Assembly (NCBI GenBank): GCA_965208905.1
Contig: OZ242365.1
Coordinates: 544,001 to 608,000, forward strand
Length of the DNA: 64,000 nucleotides
Reading direction: 5' to 3'
Source of the DNA: Nitrosopumilaceae archaeon
GTDB lineage: Archaea; Thermoproteota; Nitrososphaeria; Nitrososphaerales; Nitrosopumilaceae
Part shown: positions 6,563 to 64,000 of the stretch, piece after piece
How the letters are laid out: the number at the start of each line of letters is the position of its first letter
Numbering within the stretch: position 1 is the stretch's first letter
Notes under the pieces: model-generated
Told to the model about the DNA's origin: nothing
The model's input: only the letters and a program-made list of their open reading frames with translations
Databases searched by the model: none
Position numbers and translations under genes: made by a program

Positions 6563-9220
6563 TTGTTAAAAACCAGGTTAGGTGTAATTAGGTTGGCCCT
6601 AGCTAGTGCGATCACCAACGTAATAAAACGCAATGGTAGTACGGCCAAGTTCAATAAGAGCAAGATCTCCAATGCCATATACAAAGCCATGAACGCATGT
6701 TCAAAGCCTGACAAGCAGTTAGCCGATAGTCTAGCAGATCAGGTTATAGAGAATCTCATAAAGGGTGGATACTCTGACAAGTCCGTGCCCGGTGTCGAGA
6801 ATATACAAGATACTGTAGAGATAGTCCTCTTAGAAAACAAGCATAGCGATATAGCAAAGGCGTACATCTTGTATAGGCAAGATCGTCGAAAGATACGTAA
6901 TGAAAAGATGCACATACTCAACACAAAGACACTAGACCCGGTTGCTAGAAAATTTGATGCCAACTGTTTACGTGTACTAGCATCCCGATATCTATTTCGG
7001 GATTCGAACAGTCGTATTGTCGAGTCGCCCCAGCAGCTGTTTGAGAGAGTGGCAATACAAATTGGCATAGGGGATATGTTGTATGATCCCACGCTGTTTG
7101 ACAGGGACGGCGCACATACGCAAAATATTGAGGTTGCGCAGCAGTATCTACGAAAGCTTGACAATTTTGACAACAAGTTTCACATTGGCAAGTATTATCT
7201 AAATAAATGGCATTTTAGATCACTTATTACTCACTACATATATCTAGCTCGGAACAACAAGATGCGTGTCAAGTTTCGCGACATACTAGAGCTACTGGCA
7301 TCCAACAAGTTCGATGAGCTTGAAAACAAGATAACCAGTTATCTAGAGATAATGACATCACAGAAATACCTCCCCAACTCCCCCACCATGATGAATGCAG
7401 GGGGCCGTTTAGGTCAGCTTTCAGCATGTTTTGTTTTGGACATGAAAGATGACATGGAAGGTATAATGAAGTCCACCTCGGATGCAGCTCTCATATTCAA
7501 ATCCGGTGGTGGTGTGGGAATAAACTATTCAGATTTGCGCCATGAGGGCGACACTGTAGCCTCTACATTTGGAGTGGCATCAGGTCCTGTCTCATTCATG
7601 AATATAATCAATACAGTAACCGAGGTGGTGAAACAAGGAGGAAAGAGACGTGGCGCCAACATGGGGATTTTGGAGGTATGGCATCCAGATATAGAAAAGT
7701 TTGTGAGCAACAAGACAAAACCTGGTGTCTTGGAGAACTTTAACGTCTCAGTGGGTATATGGGAAGACTTTTGGGATGCCCTTCTTAACTCAGAGGATAA
7801 AAAGTACACACTGCGAAATCCTCGAGATCAAACTCCAGTGAAAGAGATCAACGCTCAACAACTGATAGACCAGATAGCGCTCTCGGCATGGAAGAGCGCT
7901 GAGCCTGGACTGATATTCCTTGATCAAATCAACAAGTATAATGTAATGGCCAAGGCACGCATGACACCTTTGCGAGCCACCAATCCGTGCGGCGAACAGA
8001 GTCTGTATCCCAACGAGTCCTGCAACTTGGGTTCTATAAATCTGGCAAACTTGGTCCATAAGACAGAAGATGGCACATATGAGTTCGATTGGGAAGACTA
8101 TGAGCGTATAATACGTCAGACGACTAGATTCTTAGATAATGTGGTGGATGTAAACCAATATCCTGTAGAACAGATTAACGAGGCCTCCAAGGAGTCCCGG
8201 CGTATTGGATTAGGTGTAATGGGCGTAGCAGATTTACTGTACAAGCTGCGTGTACCATATAACTCAGAGGAGGGATATGCACTACAGTCTCGTTTGGCCG
8301 AGGCTCTATCGTACTTTTCCATGGATGAGTCAGTTGAGCTGGCAAAGGAGAGAGGCGCCTTCAAGCTGTATCCAAACACAGAGTATCCTGAAGGTCGTAT
8401 CCCCATAGCTGGACATTATGAATGCGAGGATAGTATGTACGATTGGAGTTCTTTAATTAAGAATATCACAACATATGGTATAAGGAACGTACTCACGACT
8501 ACTGTAGCCCCCACAGGCACGCTGTCCATGATTGCAGATTGCTCTAATGGCATGGAACCCAACTTTGCCTTGGTGTATGAAAAGCGTGTCACTATAGGCA
8601 AGTTCATGTACGTCAACAAGATACTCAAAGAAGCCCTAGAAGAGGAGGGACTATACAATGATAGTATACTTGAGAGTATAATAAACAACTACGGCTCACT
8701 TCGAGGCATAGATGATATACCCGGGTGGATGCAGGACGTCTTTGTTACGGCCATGGACATACATTGGTCAGATCATTTAATGGCCCAGGCGGTGTGGCAG
8801 AGATGGATAAGTAATGCCATTGCAAAGACCATCAATATGCCGTATGATGTTACCGTTGAGGATGTAAAGGCGGCATATCTTTTGGCACATGAGATGGGAT
8901 TAAAAGGAATTACAGTATATAGGGATGGTTCAAGGCAGAGTCAGGTTATGAATATGGCCGATGATGATGCTAAAAAATTGTTTGAGGTGGCCCCCAGTAA
9001 ACTAATGTTAAAATTTGTCTCGGAGCATACAACAGATTCATACGCAGGACAGCGTGTCCGCGATGCGCTAGTTCCAAAGATATACAATCGTGAGACCCAC
9101 ATCAACAATGTTGAGGTGTCCGAAGAGATGCTGTGTCCTACCTGCAAGAGTCATCTGATATTTGCTGAGGGTTGTAGCATATGTGTAGAGTGTGGCTTTA
9201 GCGGTTGTACTTCCAGTTAA
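6563..9220 (+). CDS. nrdJ: Adenosylcobalamin-dependent (class II) ribonucleoside-diphosphate reductase with ATP cone
   Basis: N-terminal VIKRNG ATP cone, PNSPTMMNAG, LSACFV, ATNPCGEQ...ESCNLGS, VAPTGT, and a C-terminal Cys cluster. Exact start uncertain. Confidence 0.93.
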   Translation: MLKTRLGVIRLALASAITNVIKRNGSTAKFNKSKISNAIYKAMNACSKPDKQLADSLADQVIENLIKGGYSDKSVPGVENIQDTVEIVLLENKHSDIAKAYILYRQDRRKIRNEKMHILNTKTLDPVARKFDANCLRVLASRYLFRDSNSRIVESPQQLFERVAIQIGIGDMLYDPTLFDRDGAHTQNIEVAQQYLRKLDNFDNKFHIGKYYLNKWHFRSLITHYIYLARNNKMRVKFRDILELLASNKFDELENKITSYLEIMTSQKYLPNSPTMMNAGGRLGQLSACFVLDMKDDMEGIMKSTSDAALIFKSGGGVGINYSDLRHEGDTVASTFGVASGPVSFMNIINTVTEVVKQGGKRRGANMGILEVWHPDIEKFVSNKTKPGVLENFNVSVGIWEDFWDALLNSEDKKYTLRNPRDQTPVKEINAQQLIDQIALSAWKSAEPGLIFLDQINKYNVMAKARMTPLRATNPCGEQSLYPNESCNLGSINLANLVHKTEDGTYEFDWEDYERIIRQTTRFLDNVVDVNQYPVEQINEASKESRRIGLGVMGVADLLYKLRVPYNSEEGYALQSRLAEALSYFSMDESVELAKERGAFKLYPNTEYPEGRIPIAGHYECEDSMYDWSSLIKNITTYGIRNVLTTTVAPTGTLSMIADCSNGMEPNFALVYEKRVTIGKFMYVNKILKEALEEEGLYNDSILESIINNYGSLRGIDDIPGWMQDVFVTAMDIHWSDHLMAQAVWQRWISNAIAKTINMPYDVTVEDVKAAYLLAHEMGLKGITVYRDGSRQSQVMNMADDDAKKLFEVAPSKLMLKFVSEHTTDSYAGQRVRDALVPKIYNRETHINNVEVSEEMLCPTCKSHLIFAEGCSICVECGFSGCTSS

Positions 9221-9233
9221 ATTATACACTTTG

Positions 9234-9917
9234 ATGTATCATGTGGTTTTAGCCGAATCAGCACTTGAGACTGTTCCTAATTCAATTGCAAATCATCCTG
9301 CTGTGATGCATCATGCCCAAAAGTTGGGGCGTCATGTATCCCAAATACTATTGGACAAATCTTGGCATTATGCTGCAATGAAGGGTATGCAAGATGTTCA
9401 TAAGCGTGGACGGCCTGATCTGGTTCATTTCTCCCTACTGTCGGCCATAGCTACGCCCCTATATCAGCGTGCATTGATGAAGTTGTACATACACACAATA
9501 CAGGATACGGTTATACGGTTTGCAGATAACATAAGAATACCAAAGTCGTATCACCGATTTGAAGGGTTGTTCTCCAAGTTGCTATACCAAAACAGTATAG
9601 AGTCTGAGGGTCGTATGCTACTAGAGGCGCAAAAAGGTACCATGTATGATCTGATAAAATCGATAAATCCCACAGATACAATAGGTCTCTCTGTGCGCGG
9701 CAAACAGATTATCGATGAGAATGTAATTGGTAGATTGGGAGAGAATCCATGTATTGTAATTGGAGGCTTTCAGAAAGGAGAGTTCACCAGACCAACTAGT
9801 AATACATTTGATTGCATATATAGTGTGTCGTCCATGCCACTGGAGGCTCACGTTGTAATGAGTCGTATCTTATATGATATGGAGCGATGGTGCTCATCTC
9901 AATTCAACGGTGTCTGA
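9234..9917 (+). CDS. nep1: 16S rRNA pseudouridine N1-methyltransferase Nep1/EMG1
   Basis: LAESALE, KRGRPDLVH, RIPKSYHRFEGL and VIGGFQKG SPOUT motifs. Confidence 0.9.
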   Translation: MYHVVLAESALETVPNSIANHPAVMHHAQKLGRHVSQILLDKSWHYAAMKGMQDVHKRGRPDLVHFSLLSAIATPLYQRALMKLYIHTIQDTVIRFADNIRIPKSYHRFEGLFSKLLYQNSIESEGRMLLEAQKGTMYDLIKSINPTDTIGLSVRGKQIIDENVIGRLGENPCIVIGGFQKGEFTRPTSNTFDCIYSVSSMPLEAHVVMSRILYDMERWCSSQFNGV

Positions 9918-9923
9918 TTTCGG

Positions 9924-11339
9924 GAATTATATACCTGGGTATGCACGCGTAACATACGCGTACATTCCTAGGTGCTTCATGGCGCTTGATGTCTTGGGTC
10001 GATTGCACGCTTGATTCTCACGCCGCCGTCTGGCGTCCGGAACTGCACAAACAGGTGGCTTCCGGGTCCGGCCCATTTCACGCCTTTCGAGGGCTATTCC
10101 TTCCCCCGCGGGAACCTTCATACCGGTCCCCCGTTGTATGATATTCACCGGCGCATTGCCATCGGCGTTTGCTACATGGTTACATCTAAGGCACTTGAAC
10201 ATCTCCCCATTTCGGTTCTCCTTGGATATGTAGCCGCATATACTGCACTCCTGGCTCGTGTGTTTTGGACTTACCTCTACTACACGGATGCCCAGCCGCT
10301 CTGCGATGGTGTGGATCTTTCGCAGTATTGCATAATGCCGAATGAACCTCATACCGCGGTTCATACCCTTCTTGTGCCTGCCACCGCGCCTGCTCATGGC
10401 CTCGAGGTTGAGCTGCTCGACATATATTACATCCACGCCCTCGCATATCTTCTTGGCCAATAACCACTCTGCATACTCGCGGTCGTTCGCATTACCGCGG
10501 TTGTACTTTTCTCGCTTGCGTTTAATTTTACACGTCGAGTTGGAGTGTTTATTGCGATGTGAGATGGTACGGCGCGTCTCATCATTCCATGTACGGTTCG
10601 TGCGGAATGCGGTTGCTGTATCGTATAATGTTATATTTGAGGCGTTATGGTCTGTCTTGCACACGACGGTCGGATTTGTTATCCCTCTGTCTATGCCGGC
10701 AACAACACCAGTCTTGGCGCGCCGTTCGGGTACTGGTACGTCATATGTTATGTGCAGCCGGTAGATATGGTCACATGACTTGACGTGCCCCCATGACTTT
10801 GGTGTTACACATACCAAACGGAAAGACCTTGAGCCATACAGCCAGTTATGTGGAAACTGATATGGCTGCTCCTCAGACAACTCAACAACACCAAGGCCCG
10901 GCAATGACGCGTGCCTGTTGTCCACAAATCGCGGCTGCACATCACATGATACTGCCTTTTTATTATCGCGCTTTCTGGAGCGGAAACTCAGCTCGCCATT
11001 GCCGTATTTGTTCGAGACATCCACAGCAGTGCGGGCCTGATGGATGGCCGTATTTTGGTAGATGCGCTCCACTGTTTGTAGCCACGATACGGAACGCCTC
11101 ACCTTGGTGAACTCTCTGGAGAGGTCATATGTAGTAAGTGTGGGGTTAGTAAGCAGCCGCTCCACGGCCCAGTTGTACACGAACCGTTGTGAGTCCCGTA
11201 TTTTGGATATGTGACGCGCCTGAGAGCGTGTCAGGTCTATGCGGAAGCCATAAGACCGATACATGTAGTTTTGTATACCATAATACTTTATAAACATGTA
11301 CTCTACAGGACTTGCCTTGCCTACCCAGGTATATAATTC
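9924..11339. mobile_element. tnpB-only element bounded by inverted repeats
   Basis: GAATTATATACCTGGGTA at 9924-9941 and its exact reverse complement at 11322-11339 (21/22 bp when extended inward); no TnpA gene. Confidence 0.7.
9927..11264 (-). CDS. tnpB: TnpB RNA-guided endonuclease
   Basis: N-terminal RSYGFRI...RFVYNWA, RuvC residues GIDRG / YVEQL / NADGNA, Zn finger TSQECSICG...CLRC; the likely start is MYRSY at 11264. Confidence 0.92.
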   Translation of the reverse strand: MYRSYGFRIDLTRSQARHISKIRDSQRFVYNWAVERLLTNPTLTTYDLSREFTKVRRSVSWLQTVERIYQNTAIHQARTAVDVSNKYGNGELSFRSRKRDNKKAVSCDVQPRFVDNRHASLPGLGVVELSEEQPYQFPHNWLYGSRSFRLVCVTPKSWGHVKSCDHIYRLHITYDVPVPERRAKTGVVAGIDRGITNPTVVCKTDHNASNITLYDTATAFRTNRTWNDETRRTISHRNKHSNSTCKIKRKREKYNRGNANDREYAEWLLAKKICEGVDVIYVEQLNLEAMSRRGGRHKKGMNRGMRFIRHYAILRKIHTIAERLGIRVVEVSPKHTSQECSICGYISKENRNGEMFKCLRCNHVANADGNAPVNIIQRGTGMKVPAGEGIALERREMGRTRKPPVCAVPDARRRRENQACNRPKTSSAMKHLGMYAYVTRAYPGI

Positions 11340-11392
11340 TCTTAATTTCACCTACATCATTTTTATGTAGGTCAGCGATTGGTGTGACTTGT

Positions 11393-11466
11393 GCGGTCAT
11401 AGTATAGCCTGGTTAGTATGTTGGCCTTCCAAGCCAATTACCCGGGTTCAAATCCCGGTGACCGCA
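11393..11466 (+). tRNA. tRNA-Gly(TCC)
   Basis: Acceptor stem GCGGTCA/TGACCGC, anticodon arm TTGGC-CTTCCAA-GCCAA, T arm CCGGG-TTCAAAT-CCCGG; CCA not encoded. Confidence 0.97.
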
Positions 11467-11482
11467 CTGTGGTGTTATTGAT

Positions 11483-11773
11483 ATGAGACGAAAAGACCGA
11501 GTAGCAGCCTTAAAAGAGATGGCAGATATACTAGAGATGGCTGCTCTCTCTACTGATGTTGTTTTGGCACAAAAGTATGCGGCCATGGCCTGGCGCATAA
11601 GTACCAAACATCGAATCCGCATGCCATACATAATGCGATTTATGTTCTGCAAAAAATGTAAAAAGTTTATGCGGCCCGGCGTAGATTCCAGAATCAGATT
11701 GTGTGGTGGCCGTCCACGAACAGTTAGAGTGACGTGTCTATACTGCAGTCACATATACCGCAAAGTGTTATAG
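11483..11773 (+). CDS. rnp4: Ribonuclease P protein component Rpp21 (Rpr2)
   Basis: LAQKY..MAWRIS, FCKKC...RIRL...VTCLYC Zn ribbon. Confidence 0.88.
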   Translation: MRRKDRVAALKEMADILEMAALSTDVVLAQKYAAMAWRISTKHRIRMPYIMRFMFCKKCKKFMRPGVDSRIRLCGGRPRTVRVTCLYCSHIYRKVL

Positions 11774-33393: not shown

Positions 33394-34248
33394 GTGTCTG
33401 CGTCAAGGGGCTCAAACTGGAATTTACCATACGGGACTAGACGTCACATCTACGGAGTGGCGTTTTTGTGTATTATTGCCGTTAATGCCTGGTCATACAG
33501 CTCTACGCCGGAGGGGAGTGGCGCGTATTACGGGGATGGTCGGTTAATTTGGACATATGTCACTGCAGGCATACTGGCGTTTATGATTGTAGTTGGCGCT
33601 GTATTTGGCGCATATTACGGGATATGGATGGCTACGGAAAGAGGGCGGACCCGTATTAAGTTGATACTGATGTCCATCATAGCCACCAGCGCATTGGTGC
33701 ATGCCATTGTACAGGGGGTGGGTGGCTGGTGGCCGGAGGAATTTGAAGCCGCTTGGCAGCCCATTATAGCGGCTACGCTGACGTTTATGGTTGCAGCGGG
33801 GGCCGTGTTGGGAGCGCACTTTGAGGCGCCAAATATGTCCAAAAAAAGACGAGTTGGTACGGAGGTCGCGCTGATTGCGATTGTGATCGTCGGCGCCTGC
33901 GTCTTTGCCTCGGAGGCGAGTGGAGGGTTGTTTGATGTCGGTGATGCCCAACCTCTTATTTTTGTAGGTGCATCGTCGGCCATGTCTGCGGGTGGGGCCG
34001 GGTTGGGAGCGCACTATACAGCGCTAGTCAAAAAGATGTTCTGGATACCTGTAGTGCTGACGGCGCTCATATTTGTCGTTGTTTTGGTTCATATTTGGAC
34101 CAAAAGTTTGGATGTCACGGGATGGGATGAGTGTGGCAGATTCATCTGGATGGTGGCTACTGCAACCACACTGGCGATTCCGGTCGTAGCAGGAGCAATG
34201 CTAGCTGGACACTACAGTGTGCGCATGCAGGAGAGTCTCCAAGATTGA
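33394..34248 (+). CDS. Polytopic membrane protein with four internal repeats
   Basis: About eight TM segments; repeated helix endings VGAVFGAYY / AGAVLGAHF / GGAGLGAHY / AGAMLAGHY. Confidence 0.7.
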   Translation: MSASRGSNWNLPYGTRRHIYGVAFLCIIAVNAWSYSSTPEGSGAYYGDGRLIWTYVTAGILAFMIVVGAVFGAYYGIWMATERGRTRIKLILMSIIATSALVHAIVQGVGGWWPEEFEAAWQPIIAATLTFMVAAGAVLGAHFEAPNMSKKRRVGTEVALIAIVIVGACVFASEASGGLFDVGDAQPLIFVGASSAMSAGGAGLGAHYTALVKKMFWIPVVLTALIFVVVLVHIWTKSLDVTGWDECGRFIWMVATATTLAIPVVAGAMLAGHYSVRMQESLQD

Positions 34249-34327
34249 CACGTCGCCAACAGCCATGGTCCTAGCGGACGAGCTCATACACTAGGTTGCC
34301 AGGCAGGTCATTTGCACAACACACAAT

Positions 34328-34901
34328 GTGGCGGTATTCAGGAATAGTTATGACACAAAGTTCGTATTGGGTACCCCACCTCTTGTAGATACCACATCGG
34401 ACAGTTCAGATGATGGTTCAGAGATGCCCACTATTGTGTATGGAGATGCCGCATACGGCTCAAGGGCCAATATTGCTGCATGTGAGCGTGCAGGGGTAGT
34501 TCTAGGTATACTACACAAGATAAACGTGACGCCGCGGAGCAAGGGGTTTGGCGCTGCATGGTGTACATCTGTAAGGGATCAACTGGGAGGCAGTACCAAG
34601 GCTACACGGCTAGACCTGTTAAGCCGAGAAGAGAGAGAATCAGGTGTACTGGAAGGCCAAGATTGGATACCGCAGGAGATGGGTTGTGGAGGGCGTATTT
34701 TCTATATTTAAACGCGTGTTTGGTGAACATATTCTCGCCCTCAAATGGGAGAATATCGTACATGATGATTATAAAGTCACAAAGATACAGGACCCGTACC
34801 AGATGTTGCGCAGCATAATAAAAAAGGAGCCCATCATGACGGACACACTCACCTTTAGTTGGGCAGATTGGAAGGATGTTTCTGGTAATATGTCAGGATA
34901 A
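34328..34901 (+). pseudogene. IS5-family transposase fragment (frameshifted C-terminus)
   Basis: VYGDAAYGS and WKAKIGYRRRWVVEGVFSIFKRVFGE (YxxRxxxE motif) in two frames. Confidence 0.8.
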
Positions 34902-35168
34902 ACCGCGGTAAAGGGTTACATGATAGCGCGATGCAGTTAATGAGGGTTATCGTTAATTTTGGGCGCGCTGGACCTGTGACGCGCGGGGAGCACCACAGAG
35001 GCACACGTAACACATCCGTGGAACCATGCAACTGCGCATAATAGAATAGATGTCTATGCTACCCAAATAGCGCCTTTTAAGTGATGGATATGTGCTACTG
35101 TATTGAGACATAGCGGTACCGCAACTGACAGGAATCTGGCCCAGACAGGCTTAATCGACGAGGTCACC

Positions 35169-54160: not shown

Positions 54161-54362
54161 GACCGTATTCATGTTAGTGACATACGCGCCGCGTAGGTCT
54201 TGGGACGCGCCTACAGCATGCAGTCGGATTACAGCCGCTTCCAAGATGGGAAACGCCGAGCCGGTCCCACACTTTTATGGTTCTGTGTACTCATCGACAC
54301 CATACGCACCACCGTTTGTGTCATTCTGCTGACCGGACTGACGGCTCTAGTCCTCTCATTTA

Positions 54363-55472
54363 TAGTTGGGAGTATAAATAATCCTACATTCTGTTAGAAA
54401 GGCATAAATGATCAAAATTATTACCTAATTATATGAATAACCAAACTAATGCCCAAAAAATAAAGGCTGCCCTAAAACAGACTAAGAGTACAACGCAATA
54501 CGCCCGTATCGTAGCCGTAAATATGGTGCGCGTTAAAGGATATACCGTCTCTGCGGCAGCGGATGTGCTTGGTGTAGATCGTAGCACCATATATGATTGG
54601 CTTAATGTCTACGACCATAAAGGCCTGGATGGCCTCGCCGATGGTGCGAGGCCTGGCCGTCCATCTTTCGTACCGCGCCACACATTAGAGAATATAATTA
54701 ACAATACCAAACAATTCACCGCCTACGGATTTGTTAAACTGGCTGAGAAAAAGACCGGCATAAAATACAGCGAATCGCAAGCGCGCCGTATCCTTAGGTC
54801 TCTTGGGTTTACCATACGGAAGACTCCCCGGATATCCGACCGAATTCCACCAAGGAAAGATCTCGAAATCTGGCAGAAAGATGCCAAAAATGAGATAGAA
54901 ACATTGGAAAAAGACGGATTCACGCCTATAATGTCGGATGAAAGCCACCAAAATTTGAGCATGTTTGGCAGCGGCGCAGTCTATACACGCGGTGATGCCA
55001 TACCGGTACAAACACCACTCGGCAACCAGCGCCAGACCATATACGGCGGCATCACGCTGGACGGGCAGACATGCTATATGGCCGCTAGCAAGGCCAACGA
55101 CAGGTCCTTTATCAGGTATTTAAACAAGACAAAAAAACGGTTCGGCAAGGTTGCCGTAATACTGGACAATGCCGCATATCACAACTCTAGTCGTGTAAAG
55201 CGATACTTGAAAAAGAATAATAATTTCGTCAAACTGATATTCTTGCCTCCATACTCGCCGTTTTTAAATCCAGCCGAATGGTTATGGCTCAACGGCAAGG
55301 CAAGGATACGGCGAACTTTCAGGCGGCCGGCCAAAAGATATTTCCGAAGAAAAATCATGCTGATATACGAGTCACTGGAAATAAAGTTTGATCCGCGCAA
55401 TATTCTGTTCAGAAATTTGGACAGAATCCTGCCGGTGTAAAACTGGTGTCGGGTTATTTATGCACCTAACTA
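54363..55472 (+). mobile_element. IS630-family element, copy A (1110 bp), TA duplication
   Basis: Imperfect inverted ends TAGTTGGGAGTATAAATAATCC and GGGTTATTTATGCACCTAACTA, flanked by TA on both sides. Confidence 0.92.
54433..55440 (+). CDS. IS630 transposase
   Basis: HTH, SDES, LDNAAYH, LPPYSPFLNPAE. Confidence 0.93.
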   Translation: MNNQTNAQKIKAALKQTKSTTQYARIVAVNMVRVKGYTVSAAADVLGVDRSTIYDWLNVYDHKGLDGLADGARPGRPSFVPRHTLENIINNTKQFTAYGFVKLAEKKTGIKYSESQARRILRSLGFTIRKTPRISDRIPPRKDLEIWQKDAKNEIETLEKDGFTPIMSDESHQNLSMFGSGAVYTRGDAIPVQTPLGNQRQTIYGGITLDGQTCYMAASKANDRSFIRYLNKTKKRFGKVAVILDNAAYHNSSRVKRYLKKNNNFVKLIFLPPYSPFLNPAEWLWLNGKARIRRTFRRPAKRYFRRKIMLIYESLEIKFDPRNILFRNLDRILPV

Positions 55473-55673
55473 TACACACGCGCAGCAAACACCGGACCAG
55501 CTCCCGTTTATCACCACTTGGAAGACCGACACCGCCAACAGACCATCACCATCCCTTTAGTGTATTCCGGCTACCCAGGGAAACTCTGGTGTCGATAACT
55601 ACTATCTTGCATCCCCATAGTCTTTGACTATCCTAGCCGTAGAACCAACGGCCTCTTTAAGTCGGTAAAGTAA

Positions 55674-59615: not shown

Positions 59616-61351
59616 GAAGATCATCAAATAGTATAATTGTCATATCGCCTTCTAAAACTGCGTACAGCTCCCCATTGCTCCATTACAAACTAATTCCAGA
59701 ATACCAAGACGCATCGTCATATATCATATTACCTATAGTAATAGTCACGTTTTGTTCCTCAGTCTATAATTTTTTATTTTTATCTTTTAATGTACCATAT
59801 TGCATCATATTGTGTGTTTAAATTCGGTCAGAGATACTGTCTTTAATACGGCTAATAAACATCATATAGTTAACCAATTTTTATGTATAATTTAATTTAT
59901 CAAAAAACAGCCCACACATTGTACGGTATTATTTTATATTTTATTTAATAAAAAATATCAAAAACAAATTATAGTATCGATATAATAAAATGAACCTATT
60001 GGGCTCAGAACAGATAGAAAATAATTCAAAGTTGTTTAGTGCCAATCCGCAGGAGGTTGTAGTAGCCATAGAGGCAAAGCGACTTCAGTATGCATTTATG
60101 TTTGATCCGTTATTGGCAATGAGTACCTCCAAGGTGGATCCACTGCCACATCAAATAGAGGCCGTATACAAATACTTACTAAAGAAACCCCGTATTCGTT
60201 TTCTGTTTGCTCATGATCCTGGTGCGGGTAAGACCATAATGGCAGGACTAGTAATAAAGGAGCTAAAACTACGAGGTTTAATAAATCGAATATTGATAGT
60301 CGTACCCGGGCATCTTAAGGAGCAGTGGCGTTGGGAGATGGAAGACAGATTTCATGAGACGTTCGATGTCATAGATCGTCAGCGTTACAACGAGTTGAAT
60401 AGCACCAATGTTTGGAATGGTTCTCAGATTATTACAGCGCTTGACTTTGCCAAACGTGTGGACGTGTTAGACTCCATAGATGGTGTTAACTTTGATCTCA
60501 TAATAGTAGATGAGGCACACAAGATGAGCGCCTATTCTACTGGTAGGACCACTACAAAGACGCAGAGGTACCGTTTAGGAGAGACGCTCTCATCTGTAAG
60601 CAAACACTTACTATTCTTAACAGCCACTCCTCACAAGGGAGACCCCGCCAACTTTCGACTGTTGTTAGACCTGTTGGAGCCCGGCTACTTTTCGGCGGAT
60701 GGTATGATAGAGGATGCCATCAAAAATCAGGACAATCCATTGTTTCTTCGCCGGGCAAAAGAGAGTATGGTTGATTTTGATGGTAAGCCTTTGTTTATGC
60801 CCCGCCAGGTACATACGCCTGATCTGAAGCTCTCTCCCACTGAGAGAACATTATACAATACTCTATCCAACTACGTACAGAAGCAGTATAATTTAGCTAT
60901 GCAGGCGATCAGGGGCCACAATATCACATTTGCCCTCATAATACTGCAGAGACGTTTTGCTTCCAGTACATATGCGCTCTCCGAGTCATTGAAGCGTAGA
61001 AAGGCACGGCTCGAAGAGTTGGAGAGAAGTGCCACCAAGGTAACCAGTGATAATGTTGATGTCACAACACAGATGGAACGGGTGGAGGAGATGTCTGAAA
61101 GTGAGAGATGGGACGAGGAGAAGAAGTGGGAGATACTCAGTCTTGCCCAAAATACTAAAGAGTTGCGCCAAGAGATAGAGATGCTGGACAAGCTGATACA
61201 GAACGCCAGTCGAGTCATGAAGCGGAAGACCGAGACAAAGTTGAGTCAACTACAAAGCACATTACGCACGTTGGATCAGGAACAACCAAACGAAAAGGTA
61301 CTGATATTTACCGAGGCCAAGGATACACTAGACTATCTCGTATCAAATATA

Positions 61352-62461
61352 TAGTTAGGTGCATAAATAACCCGACACCAGTTTTACACCGGTAGGATTT
61401 TGTCTAAATTTCTGAACAGAATATTGCGCGGATCAAACTTTATTTCCAGTGACTCGTATATCAGCATGATTTTTCTTCGGAAATATCTTTTGGCCGGCCG
61501 CCTGAAAGTTCGCCGTATCCTTGCCTTGCCGTTGAGCCATAACCATTCGGCTGGATTTAAAAACGGCGAGTACGGCGGCAAGAATATCAGTTTGACGAAA
61601 TTACTATTCTTTTTCAAGTATCGCTTTACACGGCTGGAATTATGATACGCGGCATTGTCCACTATTACGGCAACCTTGCCGAACTGTTTTTTCGTCTTGT
61701 TCAAATACCTGATAAAGGACCTGTCGTTGGCCTTGCTAGCGGCCATATAGCATGTCTGCCCGTCCAACGTGATGCCACCGTATATGCTCTGGCGCTGGTT
61801 GCAAAGTGGCGTTTGTACCGGTATGGCATCACCGCGTGTATAGACCGCGCCGCTGCCAAACATGCTCAAATTTTGGTGGCTTTCATCCGACATTATAGGC
61901 GTGAATCCGTCTTTTTCCAGCGTTTCTATCTCATTTTTGGCATCTTTCTGCCAGATTTCGAGATCTTTCCTTGGTGGAATTCGGTCGGATATCCGGGAAG
62001 TCTTCCGTATAGTAAAGCCAAGAGACCTAAGGATACGGCGCGCTTGCGATTCGCTGTATTTTATGCCGGTCTTTTTCTCAACCAGTTTAACAAATCTGTA
62101 GGCGGTAAATCGCTTGATGCCGTTAATTATATTCTCTAATGTGTGACGCGGTACGAAATATGGACGGCCCGGCCTCGCACCATCGGCGAGGCCATCCAGG
62201 CCTTTGTGGTCGTAGGCATTAAGCCAATCATATATGGTACTACGATCGACACCGAGCACATCCGCTGCCAAGGAGACAGCATGTCCTTTAATGCGCACCA
62301 TATTTACGGCTACGATACGGGCGTATTGCGTCGCACTCTTGGTCTGTTTTAGGGCCGTTTTTATTTTTTGAGCTTCGGTTTGGTTATTCATATAATTAGG
62401 TAATGATTTTGATCATTTATGCCTTTCTAATAGAATGTAGGATTATTTATGCTCCCAACTA
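61352..62461 (-). mobile_element. IS630-family element, copy B (1110 bp), TA duplication
   Basis: Close inverted copy of 54363-55472; TA at 61350-61351 and 62462-62463. Confidence 0.93.
61384..62391 (-). CDS. IS630 transposase
   Basis: 335 aa, nearly identical to copy A, DDE motifs intact. Confidence 0.93.
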   Translation of the reverse strand: MNNQTEAQKIKTALKQTKSATQYARIVAVNMVRIKGHAVSLAADVLGVDRSTIYDWLNAYDHKGLDGLADGARPGRPYFVPRHTLENIINGIKRFTAYRFVKLVEKKTGIKYSESQARRILRSLGFTIRKTSRISDRIPPRKDLEIWQKDAKNEIETLEKDGFTPIMSDESHQNLSMFGSGAVYTRGDAIPVQTPLCNQRQSIYGGITLDGQTCYMAASKANDRSFIRYLNKTKKQFGKVAVIVDNAAYHNSSRVKRYLKKNSNFVKLIFLPPYSPFLNPAEWLWLNGKARIRRTFRRPAKRYFRRKIMLIYESLEIKFDPRNILFRNLDKILPV

Positions 62462-64000
62462 TAGAGTCGTGGGGATATACAGTAAACACCATACATGGTG
62501 CCATGACATCCAATACACGTAAGGAAGCAGAAGCCATATTCCAAGACAAGACGCGCATAATGGTGGCAACAGAAGCCGCGGGGGAGGGAATAAATCTACA
62601 ATTCTGCCACATTATGATCAATTATGACTTGCCATGGAATCCCAACAGATTAGAACAGCGGATGGGCAGAATACACCGATACGGGCAGAAGCGGGACGTA
62701 CATGTCTTTAATCTGGTGGCAGCAAACACCCGAGAAGGCCAGATAATGCAAGTACTCTTTGACAAACTATTAGAGATAAAGAATGCCATTGGGAGCGATA
62801 AGGTCTTTGATGTCATCAGTGATATAGTTCCAGGCAAGAGTCTATCGCAGTTGCTACTGGATGCCACCGTCCGCTCAAGGAGTCAGAAGGTCATAATGAG
62901 GGACTTGAACCAGATTTTAGATATTGATCGTCATAATGCCCAGAACTATCCCAAGGACAGTCTTGCCAGCAAATACATGGACCAGACCATACTCCAAGAA
63001 AGACAGGAGTCGGCGCGAGAGAGGCAGCTTGTGCCCCACTACACACAGAGTATATTTAATGACATCATACAACTGGGTCAGGGAGATATAACTAATTTAG
63101 GTGGAGGATTAGTCTCCATAGCCCCTCCAAAAGATATGAAACTGGAGGGTGCCAAGACATGTCCAGTAGCAACCTTCCAAAAACAGATTCGTATGGCAAA
63201 TCCCAAAGTAGACCTTATAACATTTGGCCATCCACTCTTTGACTCGACATTACGGTGGGCTGCACGACGCTATGCCGGTACAGCCAATATAGGAGCAGTC
63301 TTTACAGACCCAACTGGCAGTCTATCGGGTGTTATAGCTTTTTGTGAGATGTCCATAAAAGATGGGGTCGGTAGATTGGCAGGCCATACCATGACAGCCT
63401 ATTATGTAGACCTGTCTGGCAATGTAAAGGAGGTACCAACTGCAATCTTGTTGGATTTGGAGCCTAGAGGAGAGATTGTAGAGGCCCCGGATATGAACAA
63501 AGTGCAGCGCTTAGTCTTAAAGGCAGTAAAAGAGTCACAGAGTAAATTTACAGATACCATACAGCAAGATCGAAGCGCTCAAGCTGACACAGCCCAGAGA
63601 TATGGAATTAAATCCATAGACAACATGTTAGCTACTATTAGTGATGATATTGAGGTCTTGCTTGGTAAAAAGACCAAGGGAAAGAAGGTAGATTTGGCCA
63701 TATATAATAAGCGTAAAGATCGTTATCGATACAGGCGGGCTCAACGAGAATTAAAAGAGCGCATAAAGAAAGACAGTATGCTAAAGTCTGACACTCCTTG
63801 TCTAATAGGCATTGCCCTGGTGGTTCCCAGCACTGCCAATATCACACAACAGTACAAGCAAGCAGTACAATTGGCCATGAAACATGAAAAAAGACGCAAA
63901 AGGCAACCAGAAGAGACCACTGCAATGGGGTATGGCTTCAATATACGCTCGGTGGATACTGCAAAAAAGTCTGGGGACACTCCAAATACCAGATATATAA

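Follow-up and report, generated by a model that had tools for sequence, protein, structure and literature searches.

The window analysed here is a 64,000-nt stretch of the genome of a sponge-associated ammonia-oxidising archaeon of the Nitrosopumilaceae (contig OZ242365.1, positions 544,001-608,000, GenBank assembly GCA_965208905.1). It was found to carry a tnpB gene enclosed by terminal inverted repeats (TIRs) in a 1,420-bp element at 9922-11341; coordinates of this element and its surroundings are window positions. The element is most probably a non-autonomous IS1595-type transposon whose cargo is an intact tnpB together with a predicted guide RNA, and which is moved in trans. Cas12 descends from TnpB, and what is known of TnpB biology comes from IS605 and IS607 elements, which excise without a scar next to a target-adjacent motif (TAM).

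The boundaries of the element were apparent from an empty site. In a sister genome of the same genus (G005), with flanks 95-96% identical to those of the window, the element is missing and ...GTGTCTGATTTC is joined directly to ACCTACATCATTTTTATGTAGG..., so that a single CTGATTTC precedes ACCTACATC. The junctions in the window read ...GTGTCTGATTTC-(9922 GGGAATTAT...ATAATTCTC 11341)-TTAATTTC-ACCTACATC..., and insertion therefore added 1,420 bp and a second 8-bp copy of the target. The target-site duplication (TSD) consists of CTGATTTC (+ strand) at 9914-9921, next to the right end (RE) of the element in the orientation of tnpB, and of TTAATTTC at 11342-11349, which differs from the first copy at two of eight bases and is absent from the empty site, where ACCTACATC directly follows CTGATTTC; on this comparison it is the second copy that has changed at two bases since insertion. 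An original prediction, made from the sequence of the window, had expected the empty site to show a single TA or TATA inside GAAT..ATTC. The site in G005 has neither GAAT..ATTC nor a TA footprint.

Both ends of the element are GG-initiated TIRs (GGGAATTATATACCTGGGTA). The right-end repeat (9922-9943, minus strand) reads GGGAATTATATACCTGGGTATG on the + strand, the tnpB strand ending in ...TACCCAGGTATATAATTCCC, and the left-end repeat (11320-11341, minus strand) reads GAGAATTATATACCTGGGTAGG on the tnpB strand, where sibling copies begin GGGAATTAT. The two repeats match at 20 of 22 positions, one fewer than the 21/22 counted originally. Their perfect 18-bp core, GAATTATATACCTGGGTA, was recognised correctly: it is exact at 9924-9941 (+) and 11322-11339 (-), recurs nowhere else in the window when up to 3 mismatches are allowed, and two matches to it were given by none of 100 dinucleotide shuffles. 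The true element is two bases wider on each side than this core, and the inverted arms found by a repeat search reach 29 nt at 86% (9917-9945 and 11318-11346). At the right end, homology stops at 9922 in all seven full copies of the source genome; ATAATTCCC forms the terminal 9 nt in all of these and in 8 of the 10 clean-ended copies of related genomes, the remaining two ending in ATAGTTCCC.

The source genome, a single 2.21-Mb contig (99.57% complete), contains 13 matches to the element, namely seven full copies including that of the window, one split copy and three small fragments. In tnpB orientation, similarity among the full copies breaks off at one and the same base on each side; they begin (G/A)(G/A)G(A/G)(A/C)TTAT and end ATAATTCCC. 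Directly outside these ends five of the seven have perfect 8-bp TSDs (AATTTGTC, TCAGCGTA, AGCCTTGC, AGGTTCAG and AAGGATCC), one has a duplication matching at 7/8 bases (TTGTTTAT/TTGTTCAT), and that of the window copy matches at 6/8 (GAAATTAA/GAAATCAG in tnpB orientation). Copies c2 and c3 are near-identical (dS 0.002) and lie at different sites with different TSDs, which indicates that the family has moved recently. Two subfamilies were distinguished, in which the inner part of the repeat differs at both ends in coordination (A, ...TATACCTGGGTA; B, ...TCC(C/A)C(T/C)T.ACTG); both retain the outer 9-10 nt, GGGA(A/C)TTAT...ATAATTCCC. The split copy (1098872-1110535 of the contig, L046) lies in three pieces, parted by insertions of ~1.25 kb and ~9 kb, a case of nested transposition.

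Eleven homologous loci (67-71% nucleotide identity) were recovered from three other genomes of the genus. Ten of them have clean GGGAATTAT-type repeats of up to ~28 bp, with an 8-bp TSD that is perfect in nine and 7/8 in one, and no clean ends were found at the eleventh. Of 251 sampled genomes of the class, four, from two genera, had the TnpB lineage of the window (E<=1e-40). GG-starting repeats with exact 8-bp TSDs were present in 2/6 copies in G006 under strict criteria, and in 2/4 in G242, which belongs to another genus. A search of genome contigs for related loci returned only four, two from a Nitrosopumilaceae metagenome-assembled genome (60-65% identity) and two distant bacterial ones. 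Taken together, boundaries, copies and TSDs support the proposal that tnpB is carried by a non-autonomous TIR element.

The source genome was searched for inverted pairs of GG(G/A)A(A/C)TTAT. Shared termini with 8-bp TSDs were found to bound the TnpB family of the window, another TnpB family (family 0) and four longer elements: two copies of E2131 (675271-677401 and 1211856-1213986; TSDs AAAATTAT and AAAAAAAT), E2837 and E2690. The open reading frames (ORFs) of these autonomous siblings encode four intact transposases of 316-320 aa with a Zn-ribbon and a DDE_Tnp_IS1595 domain (138-140 bits), and that of E2131, the only one scanned against NCBIfam, matched transpos_IS1595 with 176 bits (cut-off 75). 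Two of the four also contain a methylase-HNH passenger. In ISfinder, IS1595 presumably comprises an ISNwi1-like subgroup with ends ggnnatTAT, and '+' variants with passenger genes. The repeat of subfamily A equals that of E2690 over the first 13 nt and matches that of E2131 at 17/21 positions. Across the genus, DDE_Tnp_IS1595 was present in 9/10 genomes and Y1_Tnp absent from 10/10. In the source genome there were 0 matches to Y1_Tnp and 0 to Resolvase (serine recombinase), the controls being positive in 6/14 and 12/14 known genomes, respectively; the lack of a TnpA noted in the original prediction thus holds for the whole assembly.

The window element has an 8-bp TSD and GG termini in common with transposase-bearing IS1595 elements, and it has no transposase with Zn-ribbon and DDE_Tnp_IS1595 domain of its own. 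As its sole long ORF is tnpB, it is at most a non-autonomous IS1595 derivative, and since its ends and 8-bp footprint match IS1595, a borrowed enzyme probably moves it. As a separate observation, the IS1595-type elements at 1043578-1046414 (L037) and 1770047-1772736 (L038) of the contig have as passenger a fusion of an N6/N4 DNA methylase and an HNH nuclease; the methylase frame of L038 seems to be broken into two parts.

The only long ORF of the element occupies 9927-11351 on the minus strand. Its coding sequence (CDS) was taken as 9927-11264, encoding 445 aa from MYRSYG..., because homologues and paralogues begin at MYRS(YG). The product matched the Pfam families HTH_OrfB_IS605 (PF12323), OrfB_IS605 (PF01385) and Cas12f1-like_TNB (PF07282), and the NCBIfam model guided_TnpB (NF040570) with 126 bits (cut-off 100). 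The claim of an intact nuclease was borne out by these matches and by alignment with Cas12f (7l48), in which the RuvC residues D (GIDRG), E (YVEQLN) and D (NADGNA) and the CxxC...CxxC finger are intact; the glutamate was placed by motif, the HMMER alignment there being off by two residues after a gap. In sequence the protein is closest to Cas12f and TnpB structures. Its stop codon (9927-9929) falls within the terminal repeat, as originally read. Codons 1-380 are under purifying selection, with dN/dS 0.14-0.21 and dS 0.30-0.39 for all pairs of the five copies with a canonical start except the near-identical c2/c3. In copies c6 and c7 (2182264-2183701 and 862339-863710 of the contig) ATA replaces the start codon, the latter being also truncated to a 250-aa frame, so that the canonical start is kept in five of the seven full-length copies. 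A TATA-box-like motif, TTTATAAA, was read from the sequence at 11287-11294 (minus strand), ~22 nt upstream of the ATG, and an A/T block resembling it is kept in both subfamilies. It is a candidate internal archaeal promoter that would give a near-leaderless mRNA.

The last ~65 codons of tnpB evolve differently. Among the paralogues without c2/c3, dS drops there to 0.02-0.09 from the 0.30-0.39 of codons 1-380, with dN/dS climbing to 0.3-1.6, and the constraint is therefore on the nucleotides and not on the protein. The 195 nt before the terminal repeat (9946-10141) are 81-87% identical to three other genomes, with 63-67% for the rest of the CDS. Constraint of this kind over the last ~200 nt is as expected of a guide-RNA scaffold, and a scaffold of omega RNA or right-end element RNA (reRNA) is predicted at 9946-10141 on the minus strand, overlapping the end of tnpB. 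Within it and the repeat, the inner half of the RE repeat and the segment upstream form a hairpin at 9933-9973 (minus strand; arms 9933-9951 and 9955-9973, 84% complementary), which is probably the 3' stem of the scaffold. RNAfold placed a hairpin at the RE position in 13/13 distinct sequences, and the share of paired cells is 79.9%, where slid controls give 19-51%; 4/18 pairs change on both sides, a number matched by 4 of 500 shuffles. An Rfam scan of 9700-11600 (E<=1) returned tRNA-Gly and a chance antisense match only, with no hit on the omega region. In 2/3 sponge metatranscriptome runs of a single study, contigs align to 9948-10580 and to parts of 10790-11170 with 95-99% identity, and therefore stem from sibling copies; one of them ends in a subfamily B terminus plus 2 nt, and the nep1 flank is uncovered. 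As these contigs show neither RNA ends nor strand and may include DNA carry-over, they were not counted as evidence of an omega RNA.

The packaging seen in the window is widespread in the source genome, where PF07282 gave 75 TnpB-type matches in 2.2 Mb devoid of Y1 and serine recombinases. After one sub-threshold row overlapping another had been dropped, the remaining 74 fell into families of 16, 13, 12, 12 and 9 members, plus smaller ones. By strict criteria (an exact 8-bp duplication and a repeat of at least 10/14) 30/74 loci, in six families, pass, against 7/740 shuffled controls, and at least five families besides that of the window have GG-starting inverted ends and 8-bp duplications. These families share only 25-30% protein identity, or none detectable, so the packaging either dates far back or came about by repeated acquisition.

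Family 0 (~1,466 bp, 16 loci) has 30% protein identity to the window TnpB and a GGGAATTAT-type repeat, GGGAATTATATACAAAAGTACACA, symmetric at 25/26 positions, with 8-bp TSDs (e.g. 33496-34967, 102957-104422 and 339644-341109 of the contig; the last is locus L039). A G stands immediately 5' of the left TSD in all 12 copies with a TSD of at least 7/8, and in 13/15 of all full copies. It completes a motif A-T-N-G (A and T each in 9/12, any base before the G), and no such bias occurs at the right mirror position. Families 1 and 4 (e.g. 239554-241169 and 1677879-1679392) have a second, 25-bp repeat type, GGTTCCTCCCGCAA..., and 8-bp TSDs. In family 1, (T/A)-T-A lies 5' of the left TSD in 8/8 clean copies, C being the first duplicated base in 7/8 (TTAC-like), and in family 4, T-T does so in 5/5, mostly as ATTG or CTTG. 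Family 3 has a third repeat type, GGnnCTGTCAAATCTTAG..., again with 8-bp duplications. No transposase partner was found in the source genome for the GGTTCCTCCCGCAA-type (GGTTCC-type) repeats; three candidates were rejected, L042 having no ORF of at least 150 aa, the ends at L043 enclosing host genes, and L044 having a weak IS1595-like ORF without those ends.

Three families thus appear to have oriented motifs, A-T-N-G, TTA before a duplicated C, and TTG, directly 5' of the TSD that lies upstream of tnpB. With repeats so close to symmetric, the transposase by itself has no means of setting the direction of the element with respect to a motif of this kind, and as the motif differs between families of one repeat type and is absent from the family of the window, which has the repeat type of family 0, it tracks TnpB and not the ends. 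Should the guide begin directly beyond the right end, the motif would sit where a TAM would lie in the unoccupied allele, and that of family 0 looks like a TAM; the samples are small. A broader reading, that TnpB switched partners wholesale in this lineage, with at least six families existing only as cargo of GG-ended elements of the IS1595 kind that have 8-bp TSDs and no transposase, in genomes devoid of TnpA, and with the nuclease coupled to the location of insertion, is put forward tentatively, as a possibility with the balance of probability against it.

Several observations weigh against the reading of the window element as an IS1595-type element moved in trans. The subfamily B repeats match each other at 15-16/26 positions and have only ~10 nt in common with the autonomous elements. 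In G009 (L059-L067, L074-L077 and L082), where two pairs of copies 99.5-99.7% identical at different sites testify to recent movement of the window's TnpB lineage, the only GGGAATTAT-type transposase homologue found is broken (residues 18-164 at 50% identity, with one TAG); where ends of the intact IS1595 genes were found there, at three of four loci, the elements measure 1,225-1,228 bp, end in CGCTCATATTCC and have 8-bp TSDs. Conversely, G005 has at least five intact GGGAATTAT-type transposases without internal stop (12 matches) and no full-length member of the TnpB family of the window. In the RE hairpin, the paired share is not above that of column shuffles (219/500). Finally, no TAM-like motif was found on either flank or in the TSD among 17 elements of the window's lineage, so that a classical homing role is unsupported there; this family may have a relaxed TAM, or its TnpB another role. 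Also in G009, the exact terminus GGGAATTATAT occurs 14 times, against 0 in a reversed control; by position, 10 of these are at the ends of fetched TnpB elements and four stand alone.

The situation in G009, where the lineage moved recently without an intact cognate transposase, speaks for a DDE-type TIR/TSD transposon that is mobilised not by the GGGAATTAT-type IS1595 transposases of the same genome but by another enzyme, such as an extrachromosomal or viral transposase, one from another IS1595 subgroup or a protein not recognised as such, as does the fact that no partner was found in the source genome for the GGTTCCTCCCGCAA-type ends of families 1 and 4. This alternative is judged unlikely, because four elements of the source genome with intact IS1595 transposases have the terminal 10-13 nt and an 8-bp TSD in common with the window element, and two of these, the E2131 copies, are themselves duplicates with different TSDs.

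The original prediction assigned the element to the IS630/Tc1-mariner type, with a TA duplication and movement by the IS630 transposases of the window. Such elements are indeed present, at 54361-55474 and 61350-62463 (335-aa transposase, NF033545 156 bits), with ends consisting of a duplicated TA followed by TAGTTGGG, and IS630-linked TnpBs have been published, as the accessible text of PMC10691335 states. This assignment was rejected as highly improbable. The empty site in G005 has an 8-bp duplication and no TA footprint, conservation in all copies continues 7 nt outside TATACC to GGGAATTA, and the ends of the IS630 copies (TA followed by TAGTTGGGAGTATAAA) are unlike those of the TnpB element (GGGAATTATATACC) and out of register with them. 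What stands of that proposal is movement by a DDE transposase in trans, the best explanation at hand, with IS1595-type ends in place of IS630 ones. Further copies of the repeat bound tnpB in siblings, and the transposase elements with the same termini are of IS1595 and not of IS630. The IS630 copies of the window belong to a genome-wide family of ~14 repeats.

It is just as improbable that the element is an IS200/IS605 (IS1341-group) or IS607 TnpB-only element, mobilised by a Y1 or serine TnpA in trans, with an incidental inverted repeat: TnpB is normally found in those elements and the right-end hairpin is present, but elements of these families have neither TIRs nor TSDs (PMC13565253, accessible text), whereas the window element has both, Y1_Tnp is absent from 10/10 genomes of the genus, and Resolvase from the source genome. 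Of the two hairpins that had been offered originally as IS605-type ends, the supposed left one (11350-11372, ACCTACATCATTTTTATGTAGGT), between nep1 and tRNA-Gly, is conserved at the empty site in G005 and is therefore host DNA and not a transposon end. Only the right end of the element has a hairpin, and with TIRs and a TSD present and Y1 lacking, this caveat falls away.

Under the preferred reading, a non-autonomous IS1595-type element moved in trans, IS1595-family DDE transposases, for which the two E2131 copies, E2837 and E2690 are candidates, would bind the common termini and move the element. Its tnpB would be transcribed from the internal TATA box, and the last ~200 nt, including the RE-repeat hairpin, are predicted to fold into the omega RNA scaffold, with a guide that would be read from the flank, that is, the TSD copy and the 3' end of nep1. 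TnpB might then cut unoccupied alleles and so confer a homing or retention advantage on the element. This last step is the weakest for the window's family, since no TAM-like flank motif was found in it.

Comparison with IS1595 supports the family assignment. According to the accessible text of PMC8101967, members of this family generally lie between 8-bp TSDs and have the Merlin elements as eukaryotic relatives; the window element resembles them in its GG-initiated TIRs and 8-bp TSD, and departs from them in that it lost or never had a transposase, tnpB and the predicted RNA filling its whole interior. It also resembles the IS1341 group, in its size of ~1.4 kb, its single tnpB ORF reaching almost to the right end, the non-protein constraint at the 3' end and the many copies per genome; IS200/IS605 elements, however, insert 3' of a TAM and depend on Y1 TnpA.

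TnpB in DDE transposons is not new in itself. Altae-Tran et al. (2023) described six DDE-associated TnpB branches (DDE-1 to DDE-6) with inverted terminal repeats, DDE-6 being linked to IS630, and solo TnpBs that share ends with transposase-bearing elements, which implies mobilisation in trans (PMC10691335). As far as the accessible text of that paper goes, the window element is like those branches in its symmetric inverted terminal repeats and in the position of the tnpB 3' end near the transposon end, and unlike them in its IS1595-type partner, its non-specific 8-bp TSD, a transposase that is never in cis and its archaeal host. The term IS1595 is absent from the main text of PMC10691335; its supplements and its Figure 4, which name the DDE partners, may already include that family. 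A 2026 review by Kojima (PMC13565253), in its accessible text, names only ISL2, IS630 and IS1031 as DDE partners of TnpB, calls such pairings rare in prokaryotes and holds that DDE transposons gain little from TnpB. No published TnpB in IS1595 elements or in Nitrosopumilaceae was found in the literature by title, abstract and searchable text. TnpBs with IS630 and other DDE partners are already known; as far as the searched text shows, the IS1595 partner appears to be new, and the case stands out mainly by its scale in genomes that lack TnpA and by the possible TAM signal in sibling families.

A further parallel is offered by the cut-and-paste transposons that carry Fanzors (Yoon et al. 2023, PMC10711439, accessible text), in which a TnpB-family nuclease is likewise the sole cargo of a non-autonomous element with TIRs and TSDs. 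The TIR of Fanzor elements is predicted there to be part of the guide-RNA scaffold, an arrangement which the RE-repeat hairpin of the window element resembles. Unlike Fanzors, the window TnpB is prokaryotic and closest to Cas12f and TnpB structures, and no phylogenetic link to Fanzors is indicated; the element may be set beside Fanzors in eukaryotic TIR transposons as their counterpart in prokaryotes.

The significance of the system lies in a whole archaeal genus without Y1 TnpA in which TnpB has nevertheless multiplied inside IS1595-type ends (74-75 loci in the source genome) under purifying selection. It is a natural setting in which the use of an RNA-guided nuclease to a cut-and-paste element can be studied, and a source of compact archaeal TnpBs whose flanks reveal candidate TAMs. 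If the oriented motifs are read correctly, they would be the first sign of homing by obligate mobile element-guided activity (OMEGA), or of TnpB-biased insertion, in company with a DDE transposon whose duplications are non-specific.

The neighbours of the element are nep1/EMG1 (9192-9917), tRNA-Gly (11393-11467) and a gene for an Rpr2-type RNase P subunit. The insertion point lies 4 nt past the nep1 stop codon, upstream of tRNA-Gly, and the TSD copy at 9914-9921 overlaps that stop codon (TGA, 9915-9917). Both versions of the TSD, CTGATTTC and TTAATTTC, contain an in-frame stop triplet at the same offset (TGA and TAA, respectively), that of the left copy being the nep1 stop. The probable terminator of nep1 is the hairpin at 11350-11372, and the element landed between the stop codon and this hairpin.

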